Assembly (NCBI GenBank): GCA_964479015.1
Contig: CAYZJM010000002.1
Location: 1-34,491, forward strand
Reading direction: 5' to 3'
From: Candidatus Woesearchaeota archaeon
Lineage (GTDB): Archaea; Nanobdellota; Nanobdellia; Pacearchaeales; GW2011-AR1
Length of the DNA stretch: 34,491 bases
Below, one piece after another: positions 29,210-33,524 of the stretch. The first letter of the stretch is position 1, and each line of letters starts with the position of its first letter. Made by a program: the position numbers and the translations under genes. Under the pieces are notes generated by a model, which was not told where the DNA came from, did no database searches, and was given only the letters and a program-made list of their open reading frames with translations.

Positions 29210-29902
29210 TTAAGGAATCCTTACCGGCAACCATGTATTCTCATCAGTAATTTTGGGTTCTATATCACTTTCTTCTTTTTGGGTGTTTTTATTATCTTTC
29301 TGAATTTTTTCATCTGTTTCTTTATCTTTTTGTTCTATTGTTTTATCTTTTGTTAAAATTTCCTGGAGCTCTTTTAATTCTTCTTCTGTTGCTTTTTTTC
29401 TCCCTGAATTGGAATCTTCTTCATTATAAATTGGGAGAACATTAACAATTTTGTGTCCAAATATTTCTGTAGCAAATAGTTTTACTTCTTTCGGAGAGAG
29501 CTCTTTTCTTATTCTTTCTGAAATTTTTTCTGCAAGGTTTTTAGTTTCTTCATCTATTTTTTCTATATCATGCTTTAGAGGGATTATGAGAGAGTGACCT
29601 TTTGAAATTGGATTTAACTCTAAGATAGCAATTGCTTTTTCATCTTCCCCTATTTTATAACTATTGATTTCTCCAGAAATGATTGAACAAAAGAGACATC
29701 CTCCATTTTTTTGAGAATTTGAAGGATTAGGAGAATCAGAAGAGTCTTTTATTAGGTTATTCTTTTTTAAAAAATTTTCAAGAGTTTCAGAATCCATTGA
29801 GAGTATTTGTTTTTTTGCTTCTTCTCTTTTTTCTTCAGGGAAGTTTTCAATTTGTTTAAGAAGTTGTTCTTTAATCTTTTCTTTTTGTTCCTCACTGAGC
29901 AT
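29210..29902 (-). CDS. HIT-fold protein with a degenerate histidine triad and charged N- and C-terminal extensions
   Basis: The core CLFCSIISGEINSYKIGEDEKAIAILELNPISKGHSLIIPLKH matches the HIT N-terminal half. The triad position reads FGHKIVNVLP instead of H-x-H-x-H-x-x. Confidence 0.6.
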   Translation of the reverse strand: MLSEEQKEKIKEQLLKQIENFPEEKREEAKKQILSMDSETLENFLKKNNLIKDSSDSPNPSNSQKNGGCLFCSIISGEINSYKIGEDEKAIAILELNPISKGHSLIIPLKHDIEKIDEETKNLAEKISERIRKELSPKEVKLFATEIFGHKIVNVLPIYNEEDSNSGRKKATEEELKELQEILTKDKTIEQKDKETDEKIQKDNKNTQKEESDIEPKITDENTWLPVRIP

Positions 29903-29987
29903 ATCCCTTAAAGATAAACATTTCTTTTATATTTAACTATTATCTAAATTTTATGTCCAGAAAAAGATTTGTTTTAATTTTTTTCAT

Positions 29988-30512
29988 TCATCGATTATCT
30001 TTAATATAATTAGAGATATAATTTTCATATTTTCTTACAGAATCTAATTTTGGGATTGTTTCATCAGGGATTCTTATTCCAAACTTTTGTTCTACAGTAT
30101 AAGCTACTTCATGTATATCTAAAACATCCATTCCCATCTCTTCGAAACTCTGGTTGGGCATTACCTTTCTAGGGTCTTGTTCAAAGATATGATTGACTAA
30201 GATTCCTTCTAATTTGCTTGAAATTTTTGTTCTATCAAAGTTATTTGATGTTTCTTGTGTTTTAGAGATATAATCTTCATATTTTTTTAGAGAATCTAAT
30301 TTAGGAATTGTTTCATCAGGAATTTTTATTCCAAATTTTCCTTCTATCATATATGCTATCTCATGTGTATCCAAACTATCCATCCCCATCTCTTCAAAAC
30401 TCTTATTTGGATTTATATTTATTGGATTGTATCCAAAGATATGTTCCACTATAATTCCTTCTACTCTCTTTGAAATTTCTGTTTTATTAGATTCATCTGA
30501 ATTTTCTTTCAT
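29988..30512 (-). CDS. Tandem acyl-carrier-protein (ACP-like) didomain protein
   Basis: There are two 71-aa repeats. Repeat 1 is ISKRVEGIIVEHIFGYNPININPNKSFEEMGMDSLDTHEIAYMIEGKFGIKIPDETIPKLDSLKKYEDYIS. It aligns without gaps, by eye, to bacterial ACP (IEERVKKIIGEQLG...LGADSLDTVELVMALEEEF..EIPDEEAEKI...AIDYI). Repeat 2 has GMDVLD at the same place. Confidence 0.8.
   Translation of the reverse strand: MKENSDESNKTEISKRVEGIIVEHIFGYNPININPNKSFEEMGMDSLDTHEIAYMIEGKFGIKIPDETIPKLDSLKKYEDYISKTQETSNNFDRTKISSKLEGILVNHIFEQDPRKVMPNQSFEEMGMDVLDIHEVAYTVEQKFGIRIPDETIPKLDSVRKYENYISNYIKDNR
30012..30476 (-). repeat. Internal tandem duplication encoding the two ACP-like domains (30264..30476 and 30012..30224)
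   Basis: Residues 13-83 and 97-167 of the protein are collinear repeats separated by a 13-aa linker. Confidence 0.85.
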
Positions 30513-30627
30513 TTTATTTGGGGTGGTAAGGGATTTATAAAATCTCTGGTTTTATTTTAATTAATTTTTAAGGGTGATTAATTCTCTAAAGAATCAAAAG
30601 AGGGTGTTGAAGCCTTTTAGAGTATTT

Positions 30628-30900
30628 TTATCCTATTGCTTTCCTTATATCAATGATAGATGTAGAGTTAATTTCTTCTATTTTTTCAATTTTTTCTTGT
30701 AAACTTTCAAGTTCTTTATCTTCAGCACACTCAAATGAGGCAATTATCGCTTTTAATCCAAATGCTATTGGTTCTTCTGTAAAGTTAGGGTTATTAATCC
30801 CTTCTTTTTCTAATATTTTTTTTATTTCTTCTTTAATTTTTTCCAGATTAACATCTGGAGAAGAAGGCATCATTTTCATTTTTATTGCTGTTATTCCCAT
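30628..30900 (-). CDS. Translation elongation factor aEF-1 beta
   Basis: The 90-aa protein has MKMMPSSPDVNLEKIKEEIKK ... EEPIAFGLKAIIASF ... IIDIRKAIG, with the size and pattern typical of aEF-1beta. Confidence 0.8.
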   Translation of the reverse strand: MGITAIKMKMMPSSPDVNLEKIKEEIKKILEKEGINNPNFTEEPIAFGLKAIIASFECAEDKELESLQEKIEKIEEINSTSIIDIRKAIG

Positions 30901-31022: not shown

Positions 31023-31964
31023 ATGAATGGCAATTATGAAAAAATAATCGAAAGAATTGCAAAATCTTCTGGATTAGAAAAGAATGAGATTGAAAGAAAA
31101 ATTGAAGCTAAAAGGGCAAAACTTTCAGGATTAATTAGTAGAGAGGGTGCAGCACAGGTTATTTGTGCAGAGTTAGGAATTAATTTAGATAAAGAGAAAT
31201 TAAAGATTGGAGAGCTACTTCCTAGTATGAGGAAAGTAAATACCATAGGGAAGGTGATTAGTATTTCTCCTGTAAGAAAATTTACAAGGAATAATAAAGA
31301 ATCTAAAGTAGTTAATTTATTTATTGCAGATGAATCTTCAAATGTAAGGGTGGTCTTGTGGGACGAGAATCATATAGATTTAATTGAAAAAAAGCAGGTA
31401 AAAGAAGGAGATGTTGTGGAAGTTTCTAATGGAAATATGAGAAATAATGAAATCCATCTTGGAGGTTTTTCAGAATTTAAAAAAGTAAATAAGGAATTGG
31501 GGGAGGTTGTTACAGAAAAGATTGTTAAACCAAAAAAGATTTCAGAGTTAAATGTTTCTGAAAGTGTTAGTCTTCGTGCATTTGTTGTTCAAGCATTTGA
31601 GCCAAAGACTTTTGAAGTCTGCCCAGAATGTAAAAAAAGAGCTTTCCCTCAAGATGGAGGTTTTGTTTGCAAAGAGCATGGAAAAGTTACTCCCGAGAAA
31701 AGAGCCTTAATCAATTTTGTTTTGGATGATGGGAGTGAGAGTATAAGGAGTGTTATGTTCTCTGATAATTTCTCTCAAGTAGGGATTACTGATTTAGAAG
31801 ACCCTTCATTACTTTCTCAACAAAAAAATAACCTTCTTGGAAAAGAGATGTTTTTTAATGGAGATGTGAGAAATAATAAATTTTTTAATAATTCTGAATT
31901 AATAGTTGATAGTGTAAAAGAGGTAAATCTTGATGAGCTTATTAATGAGCTAGAAAAAGGATAA
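31023..31964 (+). CDS. Replication protein A-like ssDNA-binding protein (OB folds plus Zn ribbon)
   Basis: An N-terminal helical module (ISREGAAQVICAELGINL) is followed by an OB-fold segment (VNLFIADESSNVRVVLWDE...GDVVEVSNG). A Zn ribbon (CPECKKRAF....CKEHGKV) and a second OB-like segment complete the protein. Confidence 0.7.
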   Translation: MNGNYEKIIERIAKSSGLEKNEIERKIEAKRAKLSGLISREGAAQVICAELGINLDKEKLKIGELLPSMRKVNTIGKVISISPVRKFTRNNKESKVVNLFIADESSNVRVVLWDENHIDLIEKKQVKEGDVVEVSNGNMRNNEIHLGGFSEFKKVNKELGEVVTEKIVKPKKISELNVSESVSLRAFVVQAFEPKTFEVCPECKKRAFPQDGGFVCKEHGKVTPEKRALINFVLDDGSESIRSVMFSDNFSQVGITDLEDPSLLSQQKNNLLGKEMFFNGDVRNNKFFNNSELIVDSVKEVNLDELINELEKG

Positions 31965-32422
31965 TGTTAACTAGGACTCATGTCACAATCTGTTTATTTT
32001 TTGTTTTGTTATTTCTCCCCCTTGTAGAATCCAAGGTTTCTTTTGTATTTATCTCTTTTTTTGCTACACTCTTCCCAGATATAGATTCTAGTTTTTCTAA
32101 AATTGGAAAGAAGAAGTTATTTAGACCATTACAATTTTTTGTATCTCATAGGGGATTCCTTCACAGTTTTATCTTTTTAGGATTAGTACTTTTGCCTCTT
32201 TATTTATTTGAATCCTCTTTTTTATTCCCTTTTTTTATGGGCTATTCTATTCACCTATTAAGTGATGCCTTAACCATTAGGGGGATTAGGCCTTTTTACC
32301 CATATGGAAAAAGATTTTCAGGGTTTATTAAAACAGGTGAAAGAATGGAGGTTCTTTTTTTTATTATATTTTTGATGGGTTCTTTAGTGTTGTTTTATAG
32401 ATATCTTTTAACAATTTTTTAA
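31964..32422 (+). CDS. Membrane-bound metal-dependent hydrolase-like protein (DUF457/YdjM-like)
   Basis: MLTRTH...FPDIDS...HRGFLHS...HLLSDALTIRGIRPFYP sits within four hydrophobic helices. The ATG overlaps the RPA stop (TAATG). Confidence 0.55.
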   Translation: MLTRTHVTICLFFVLLFLPLVESKVSFVFISFFATLFPDIDSSFSKIGKKKLFRPLQFFVSHRGFLHSFIFLGLVLLPLYLFESSFLFPFFMGYSIHLLSDALTIRGIRPFYPYGKRFSGFIKTGERMEVLFFIIFLMGSLVLFYRYLLTIF

Positions 32423-32489
32423 GGATATCCTTTAATATATACCTAAGAGTTAAACAATCTTTATAAACAAGCAATTTTTTGTTGTTATA

Positions 32490-33524
32490 ATGGCAATAAA
32501 AGAAGAAAGTAAGGAAGAATCTAAGAAAGAGGTTAAAGAGAATTCTGGAGAAGGAAGAGCAAAGAAAGAGTCTCAAAAAGAACCCCAATTAACAGATTTA
32601 CCGGGAATAGGTGCAGCAGTTGCATCAAAATTAGAATCCGCAGGAGTTTATGATCTTATGGCTTTAGCAGTGATGAGTCCTGCATCTTTAGGAGATGCTG
32701 CAGGAGTGAGTGCAGCTGTTGCTAGGAAAGCTATTCAAGCTGCAAGAAACATGCTTGAATTAGGGTTTATTGATGGCTCAGAGTATGCAAAAAAAAGAGA
32801 TTCTGTTTGTTATATTACTACAGGAAGTAAAAATTTAGATGAACTTCTTGGAGGTAAGGGAATAGAAGGAAGGGCTGTTACAGAAGCTTTTGGGGCTTAT
32901 GGTAGTGGAAAAACCCAGTTAGGATTGACTTTGGCGGTTAATGCTCAATTACCTGTGGAGAAAGGGGGCGCAAATGGAAAATGCGTTTTTATAGACACTG
33001 AAGGTACTTTTAGACCTTCTAGAATTAAAGAGATTTCGGGGGCTCTTGGAGCTAATCCAGAGAAAGTATTAAAGAATATTTTAGTTGCAAGAGCCTTTAA
33101 TTCAGATCATCAAATCCTCTTGTTAGATAAAATTTCAGAGATGATAAAGAATGGTGAGCCAATTAAGTTATTGATAGTGGATTCTTTAACAGCCCATTTT
33201 AGGTCAGAATATTCTGGAAGAGGACAACTAGCAGATAGACAACAAAAACTTAATCGTTATCTTCACGATTTAATGAGGTTAGCAGAGCAACACAATCTTG
33301 CGATTTATGTTACAAACCAGGTAATGGCAAATCCAGCACAGATGTTTGGAGACCCTACAACTGCGATAGGAGGAAATATTGTAGGGCATGCTTCTACATA
33401 TAGAATTTATTTGAGAAGAGGTAAGAAAGGTTCCAGAGTTGCAAAGATGATTGATTCTCCAAATCTTCCTGAGAACGAAACAATCTTTTATCTTGGAACT
33501 GATGGTGTGAAGGATGATGAGTAA
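32490..33524 (+). CDS. radA: DNA repair and recombination protein RadA
   Basis: The HhH is [17 protein letters not shown] and Walker A is GAYGSGKTQ. Walker B is LLIVDSL. The C-terminal [19 protein letters not shown] also fits. A K/E-rich N-terminal extension of about 33 aa is present. A tttataaa TATA box (32460..32467) lies 26 nt upstream. Confidence 0.92.

Follow-up and report, generated by a model that had tools for sequence, protein, structure and literature searches.

Textbooks present acyl carrier protein (ACP) as the carrier that depends on a cofactor, and the fold is taken to require a phosphopantetheinyl transferase (PPTase). A tandem ACP gene in the genome of a Candidatus Woesearchaeota archaeon raises the question of what this fold does in an organism for which we could detect no such enzyme. 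The gene lies in the window analysed here, a 34,491-nucleotide stretch of contig CAYZJM010000002.1, and its host genome (G000) is a 955-kb metagenome bin that is 82% complete. An earlier note, made from the letters of this window, had described a tandem ACP whose second domain lacks the attachment serine, and had offered two readings of it, a horizontally acquired carrier serving acyl or aminoacyl transfer, or an ACP fold co-opted as a non-carrier adaptor.

Two ACP folds in one archaeal ORF

The ORF (29988–30512, minus strand; the end coordinate counts the stop codon) codes for 174 residues, and the Pfam PP-binding profile PF00550 matches the whole protein twice, with 62.4 bits. Scored separately, domain 1 (aa 1–87; 30252–30512, minus strand) reaches 39.6 bits and domain 2 (aa 88–174; 29991–30251, minus strand) reaches 26.3 bits, both above the PF00550 gathering cut-off of 20.8 bits; thus, the PP-binding model, which had been proposed as a check, gives a significant match to each half. 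The TIGR00517 (acyl_carrier) model scores 88.4 bits on the full didomain and aligns end to end with each half. Its equivalog cut-off of 70.45 is passed only by the didomain sum, the single domains giving 49.4 and 43.4 bits, and over TIGR00517 and NF002148, both with cut-offs of about 70, single domains score 43–52 bits. The two halves are 63% identical over 79 residues, gap-free, and ~78% identical in DNA. The dN/dS between them is ~0.47 (pN 0.19, pS 0.35), a value that is below 1 yet relaxed. A word-index search for proteins of similar length returned the query itself as its sole match.

An AlphaFold2 model of the didomain (mean pLDDT 86.6) consists of two four-helix units, with modelled helices at residues 3–26, 46–60 and 75–86 in domain 1 and at residues 94–110, 130–144 and 159–173 in domain 2. 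Helix II of the model starts at residue 46 in domain 1 and at residue 130 in domain 2, that is, at the attachment position for phosphopantetheine. This position is Ser46 (codon 30375–30377), within the motif GMDSLD, in domain 1; in domain 2 the attachment serine is replaced by Val130 (codon 30123–30125), within GMDVLD. Every structural match returned by Foldseek is an ACP, at target-normalised TM-scores of 0.6–0.7; the E-values remain above 1e-3, an effect of the two-domain query. The closest solved sequences are AcpM, mitochondrial ACPs and AcpP, and the didomain is acidic, with a pI of about 5. Profiles, model and structural matches thus agree with the earlier description of two repeats, each ACP-like over its full length, with a serine in the first motif and a valine in the second.

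The genes around the didomain gene are archaeal. The upstream neighbour encodes aEF-1beta (30628–30900, minus strand), whose EF1_GNE domain matches PF00736 with 58.3 bits. The downstream neighbour encodes a HIT-like protein (29210–29902, minus strand) that PF01230 matches in the N-terminal half only and in which GHKIVNVLP replaces the histidine triad, in keeping with the HIT fold and non-canonical active site that had been read from its sequence. Rad51/RadA (PF08423), an RPA-like OB protein and an archaeal-type A24 prepilin peptidase are further archaeal neighbours, and a YdjM-family membrane protein, identified with Pfam as RadA was, is also encoded near the ACP gene.

The gene had also been credited with a leaderless-type TATA box of its own. 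The palindromic octamer TTTATAAA is found at 30534–30541 (minus strand), 21 nt ahead of the ATG; the window contains it 15 times, and in 8 cases it sits 20–22 nt ahead of the ATG of a long ORF. Sites with this spacing include 8159, 20495, 27175, 28329, 30534, 30922, 32460 and 34270, and the ORFs that they precede include aEF-1beta, RadA and the prepilin peptidase. The looser TTTWTAWA pattern occurs 84 times in the window, which is no enrichment over the 67 ± 10 expected. Because 8 of 15 octamers stand at the standard spacing, the promoter claim fares better than chance, and the TATA-like box gives the ACP gene the same leaderless-type layout as its housekeeping neighbours. The regularity of TTTATAAA in the window implies that the TATA box of this genome is very regular and that its transcripts are leaderless.

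A tandem of this kind in a metagenome bin could in principle reflect bacterial contamination, a chimeric join or a misassembled repeat, and the host genome, with its 110 contigs and an estimated contamination of about 3% (2.95%), is the sort of assembly in which this could occur. However, GC content is even throughout the locus, archaeal genes flank the ORF on either side, the identical gene order is found in 8 further genomes, and the repeats, at ~78% identity in DNA, are too diverged for an assembly duplication. Moreover, the ORF is covered by contigs assembled from DNA of two samples of one lake-water study. The second-sample contig, 610 nt in length and spanning 29965–30574, shows zero differences, and the tandem is therefore not an assembly artefact. 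Even GC, synteny in other genomes and the second-sample contig thus refute contamination and misassembly for practical purposes, leaving an artefact extremely improbable and the contig archaeal, as opposed to bacterial or chimeric, at this point.

A family-restricted clade beside a core HIT-like gene

The HIT-like gene is a core gene of the family, present in 192 of 201 family genomes. Its conserved surroundings comprise an RPA gene that diverges from aEF-1beta, the HIT-like gene following aEF-1beta in the same direction and a peptidase gene that converges on the latter, and aEF-1beta and HIT abut or overlap in most genomes. The motif G-H-x-phi-phi-N-phi-phi-P is kept in 30 HIT-like orthologues. 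Family-wide (L030–L059), the canonical H-phi-H-phi-H-phi-phi triad has become G-H-x-phi-phi-N-phi-phi-P-phi-Y, and also conserved in the orthologues are two N-terminal Cys residues (CxFC) and a tail rich in lysine that ends with WLPKRIP. When the motif was aligned between ACP-bearing and ACP-less genomes, no differences were seen.

An ACP gene stands between aEF-1beta and the HIT-like gene in 3 of 30 HIT-anchored loci, and a profile search of about 400 family genomes combined with inspection yielded nine genomes with this synteny (G000, G220, G295, G392, G126, G450, G214, G368 and G130). The ACPs were recovered by anchoring on the HIT-like neighbour together with profiles; a whole-protein search of 60 relatives gave only spurious matches, with E ~1e-3, within large unrelated ORFs. 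What lies between aEF-1beta and the HIT-like gene varies, with unrelated ORFs of 138–188 aa (L042:762–1175, L044:945–1508 and L054:907–1401) occupying this slot in other genomes.

When 115 ACP domains (41 of this order, 74 of named bacteria) were placed in a tree, domains 1 and 2 of the window protein came out as sisters (SH-aLRT 98). They fall inside a clade of 11 domains from 10 genomes, made up of the nine syntenic genes plus one from G061, that contains only ACPs of this archaeal family (SH-aLRT 89, no bootstrap). The tree itself, built on 88 columns, is weak, and synteny is the stronger and independent argument for the clade: the order aEF-1beta, ACP, HIT-like is held in 9 of the 10 clade genomes, with aEF-1beta as syntenic partner, over at least six genera. 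PF00550 matches 9 of the 10 clade members. Within the clade, the ACPs share 19–35% identity; for the neighbouring genes the figure is about 50% (HIT-like) and about 60% (RPA-like). The closest bacterial ACPs, found by a scan of genome contigs, are generic AcpP/AcpM proteins of many phyla at 30–43% identity, and no specific bacterial donor is indicated by that scan.

Recent transfer from a bacterium was rejected, on the basis of the family-only clade in the tree and the shared synteny. The ACP gene is a fast-evolving resident of this archaeal lineage and no recent import. The suggestion of a horizontally acquired carrier consequently finds poor support, there being a family-only clade, a single slot in at least six genera and no donor, and the phylogeny that had been proposed for tracing each repeat to bacteria instead placed the halves together inside the archaeal clade. 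The premise that ACP is lacking in this lineage was also too strong, as about 12% of sampled genomes of the order carry a PP-binding domain (6% carry AcpS). The fused form is not commonplace, occurring only in this genome among about 400 family genomes sampled. The didomain arose by internal duplication of a single-domain ACP gene located between aEF-1beta and the core HIT-like gene.

The attachment serine and the arming machinery

At the attachment position, 8 domains of the clade carry Ser, while domain 2 here carries Val, the G295 protein Tyr and the G130 protein Lys; in the last two genomes the Ser-less ACP is the sole copy. The Asp that precedes this position is invariant across the clade. 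Serine is among the better conserved positions of the clade, yet it has been lost three separate times. Its presence in 8 of 11 domains at 19–35% identity, together with the invariant Asp, has the look of a still-used attachment site and counts against an apo state of these proteins. Among the 41 distinct ACP-like domains of the family, the serine is kept in 35 and absent from 6.

Ser-less ACP domains also occur in other clades and contexts, where the fold is likewise retained. G213 (L016:1483–2129) and G317 (L068:1176–1758) each contain an adjacent gene pair in which one ACP is Ser-less (DDID or DYIH) and the other bears Ser, and both of these genomes have AcpS. The G213 pair adjoins genes for a HerA-like ATPase (DUF87), a nucleotidyltransferase and a Trm5/TYW2 methyltransferase. 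Metagenomic multi-ACP proteins with a Ser-less copy beside a Ser-bearing one include P0006, P0007, P0009, P0045 and P0083. P0006 and P0009 are 300–335 aa long, with three ACP domains, of which the third is without Ser, proline-rich linkers and a lipoprotein-like N-terminus, and they may be secreted multi-ACP proteins.

The enzymes that would arm a carrier were sought in all ten clade genomes (the nine syntenic genomes and G061), which are incomplete metagenome bins of 77–98% completeness. PF01648 (ACPS), which covers both AcpS and Sfp types, gave no match with E ≤ 1 in 10 of 10, and its only trace, in G392, is a 12.9-bit fragment carrying stop codons. A family-specific profile built from nine family AcpS proteins also found none in the 10 genomes (control G213, 3.3e-37), and an unfiltered local hmmsearch for AcpS over all six-frame ORFs of G000 gave a best score of 11 bits, which is noise. 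With gaps in the bins taken as random and independent, AcpS would escape detection in 10 of 10 genomes with a probability of ~1e-9. These searches strongly suggest that a PPTase is absent from the clade genomes.

Two relatives, G213 (L025:1429–1839) and G154 (L029:1435–1824), carry AcpS between YdjM and RadA. The same two genes of the window (YdjM, 31964–32422; RadA, 32490–33524) are separated by a 68-nt spacer (32423–32489) that is empty. The AcpS position in G213 and G154 is a few kb from the aEF-1beta/HIT locus.

The enzymes that supply the cofactor and those that work with an ACP are likewise undetectable in G000. Profile searches, with positive controls in reference archaea and bacteria, gave no match to CoaB (DFP), to archaeal dephospho-CoA kinase or to HMG-CoA reductase, and the match to CoA_binding_2 was sub-threshold only. 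No AMP-binding enzyme (PF00501), ketosynthase (PF00109), malonyl-CoA:ACP transacylase-type acyltransferase (PF00698) or PlsC-type acyltransferase (PF01553) was matched in G000 either, the controls again being positive. The earlier observation that AcpS/PPTase, ketosynthase and adenylating enzyme are missing from the window can thus be extended to the whole 955-kb, 82%-complete genome.

Relatives in the order present a different picture. Of 12 AcpS genomes in the order sample, 10 also have an ACP, and 14 of the 24 ACP genomes are without AcpS. Several loci (L012:808–3183, minus strand; also L013, L015, L017 and L076) encode an Aas-like fusion of ~790 aa that joins AMP-binding, PP-binding and PlsC-type acyltransferase domains and is followed by AcpS and a membrane gene that reads as MFS-like from its sequence only. 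The fusion is plausibly a system for re-acylating scavenged lysolipids in DPANN archaea. Other relatives have a cluster of ligase, ACP, AcpS and hexapeptide transferase, or AcpS beside an SDR and a MaoC dehydratase, and such AcpS-linked systems of the family look like real carriers. The earlier idea that the didomain serves to remodel scavenged lipids fits the Aas-like fusion of these relatives and its AcpS; the genes concerned, including the fusion itself, were not found in G000.

The order contains further ACPs in varied settings. In G364 (L070:186–1655), a 490-aa protein joins a PP-binding domain at its N-terminus to a class I/II aminotransferase. It is reminiscent of the type of alpha-oxoamine synthase that uses an acyl-carrier thioester for condensation with an amino acid, and it is unusual for an archaeon. 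Four more ACPs, L010 (G089), L011 (G171), L014 (G066) and L066 (G061), occur in a bacterial-like FabF-ACP-FabG cluster, with exosome subunit genes, with ribosomal protein genes and upstream of a proteasome beta subunit; the proteasome subunit is confirmed by Pfam, and the remaining neighbours in these four contexts were read from ORF sequences only.

The didomain may nevertheless be a true carrier. Ser46 would then receive phosphopantetheine from a PPTase encoded in unassembled DNA, too diverged for the profiles to recognise or of an unknown kind, the CoA would be imported, and domain 1 would shuttle acyl or aminoacyl groups with domain 2 as a structural or docking helper. In favour of such a function, 8 of 11 clade domains retain D-S-L at only 19–35% identity and AcpP models cover both halves along their full length, and there are two precedents among relatives: the Ser-bearing and Ser-less ACP pairs of the AcpS genomes G213 and G317, which constitute a recurring working arrangement, and the clear systems built on the Aas-like fusion with AcpS or on the cluster of ligase, ACP, AcpS and hexapeptide transferase. 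However, two profiles find no PPTase in 10 clade genomes, one of which, the six-contig G061 bin, is 98% complete, and the sole copies in G295 and G130 bear Tyr and Lys at the attachment position. Neither CoA synthesis nor an adenylating, condensing or acyl-transfer partner was detected in G000; NRPS-like, DltC-like and Aas-like carriers need an adenylating enzyme together with an acyltransferase or condensation partner, and in relatives with adenylation-dependent systems these partners are fused or adjacent and accompanied by AcpS, unlike in G000, where neither PF00501 nor PF01553 is matched. With no loading, arming or acyl-using enzyme found, the acyl or aminoacyl carrier of the earlier note is poorly supported, and we consider a true carrier unlikely.

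An ACP fold that may work without its cofactor

The reading that we prefer, and that we judge could equally well prove right or wrong, is that the didomain is a cofactor-independent, apo ACP-fold binding module and no longer a phosphopantetheine-bearing acyl carrier. The ACP of the clade would have lost its dependence on phosphopantetheine and would act in the apo state. The didomain would be a small, acidic, four-helix protein-binding module with two similar binding surfaces, in which Ser46 presumably persists as a helix N-cap or a relic and not as an attachment site. A link to the neighbouring translation and nucleotide-handling genes is possible. The 10 of 10 genomes without a detected PPTase, the three Ser losses and the ORFs that are intact in at least six genera favour this apo module, as do the empty AcpS slot, the dN/dS of ~0.47 and the housekeeping-like promoter box. 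Of the two readings originally offered, a non-carrier adaptor thus fits the better, given the lack of a PPTase in ten genomes, the three Ser losses and a CoA pathway that was not detected; that the protein is apo and that it serves as a protein-binding adaptor are steps that we infer.

Comparison with characterised ACPs helps to place the protein. Like AcpP and AcpM (PF00550, TIGR00517; PDB 1L0H, 1KLP), it has a four-helix fold of ~75–85 aa per domain and is acidic; D-S-L stands at the start of helix II in domain 1, and the profiles align end to end. Unlike AcpP and AcpM, it consists of two fused domains with Val at the attachment site of the second, shares 30–43% identity with them and falls below the equivalog cut-offs as single domains. 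Its gene is located in an archaeal translation/housekeeping neighbourhood, in a genome for which AcpS, FAS enzymes and CoA synthesis were not detected. Two ACP folds joined by a short linker are also found in the tandem ACPs of trans-AT PKS and PUFA systems, such as the mupirocin MmpA didomain (PDB 2L22), which is among the structural matches. In the PKS/PUFA tandems, every known copy keeps the serine, and the copies are charged side by side so that flux increases. Such tandems form part of megasynthases, whereas the protein here is a free-standing one of 174 aa with one Ser-less copy, and no ketosynthase was found in its genome. The Ser-less domains of the metagenomic tandems and of the G213 and G317 pairs share the retained fold, but they belong to other clades and contexts, and G213 and G317 have AcpS.

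The nearest analogy for an apo module comes from ACPs that serve as accessory subunits. These include mitochondrial ACP (NDUFAB1/SDAP) in complex I and in Nfs1-ISD11-ACP, and AcpM on EmbA-EmbB and on MmpL5; chains of these complexes rank among the best sequence and fold matches to the didomain, and in each the ACP fold is a bound subunit of unrelated machinery. By analogy, the solved structures of EmbA-EmbB-AcpM, MmpL5-AcpM, Nfs1-ISD11-ACP and complex I would also favour the apo module. In these complexes the subunit is a holo or acylated ACP, whose arm often contributes to binding. As no arming enzyme is detectable here, the accessory-subunit ACPs are imperfect precedents.

The dN/dS of 0.47 and the patchy spread, in about 10 of 400 genomes, would also be compatible with weak selection, and the clade may be a decaying relic: an ancestral system of ACP, AcpS and partners would have been lost, leaving a functionless ACP to drift on the way to deletion, with the duplication and the Ser losses neutral. 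That patchiness among family genomes, a divergence that is very fast at 19–35% identity against ~50% for the HIT-like and ~60% for the RPA-like neighbour, the relaxed dN/dS, the triple loss of Ser and the unrelated inserts that occupy the variable aEF-1beta/HIT slot elsewhere would all follow from such decay. Very small genomes usually delete unused DNA, however, and all 10 of 10 copies are intact, full-length ORFs in genomes of 0.4–1.0 Mb. The slot is conserved over at least six genera, the ACP fold is confidently predicted for both duplicate halves, dN/dS stays below 1, and the promoter box is canonical and at the standard spacing, all of which argue against a relic. We therefore regard decay as improbable, and somewhat more so than a true carrier.

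Returning to the apo module, we tentatively extend it to the clade as a whole, in a form that is possible but that we hold less firmly than the module itself. These archaea would have a phosphopantetheine-independent ACP-fold clade within DPANN, kept in an aEF-1beta/HIT-like operon. It would serve as a subunit that binds proteins, perhaps within the machinery for translation or nucleotide handling, and in the present genome it would be doubled into an adaptor with two surfaces. If true, this would mirror among prokaryotes the structural role that ACP has in mitochondria. The 14 of 24 ACP genomes of the order without a PPTase suggest that apo-ACP functions may be common in reduced archaea.

The ACP fold and family are already known, as are tandem and Ser-less ACP domains elsewhere. 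New here are a syntenic, multi-genus archaeal ACP clade without a detectable PPTase, with a CoA pathway that was not detected in G000, and, within that clade, a one-off fused Ser/Val didomain. In the literature, we found DPANN Fab-type genes and ACP-independent archaeal fatty-acid synthesis covered, and orphan, tandem or Ser-less ACPs of this lineage were not found. If confirmed, the apo module would provide a natural system for asking what an armless ACP fold does, and it would caution that ACP matches in DPANN genomes need not mean fatty-acid or acyl-lipid metabolism. The same family also has what appear to be real AcpS-linked ACP systems, such as the Aas-like fusion for lysolipid re-acylation. 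As both kinds of ACP occur in one family, they should therefore be distinguished in metabolic reconstructions of these symbionts.
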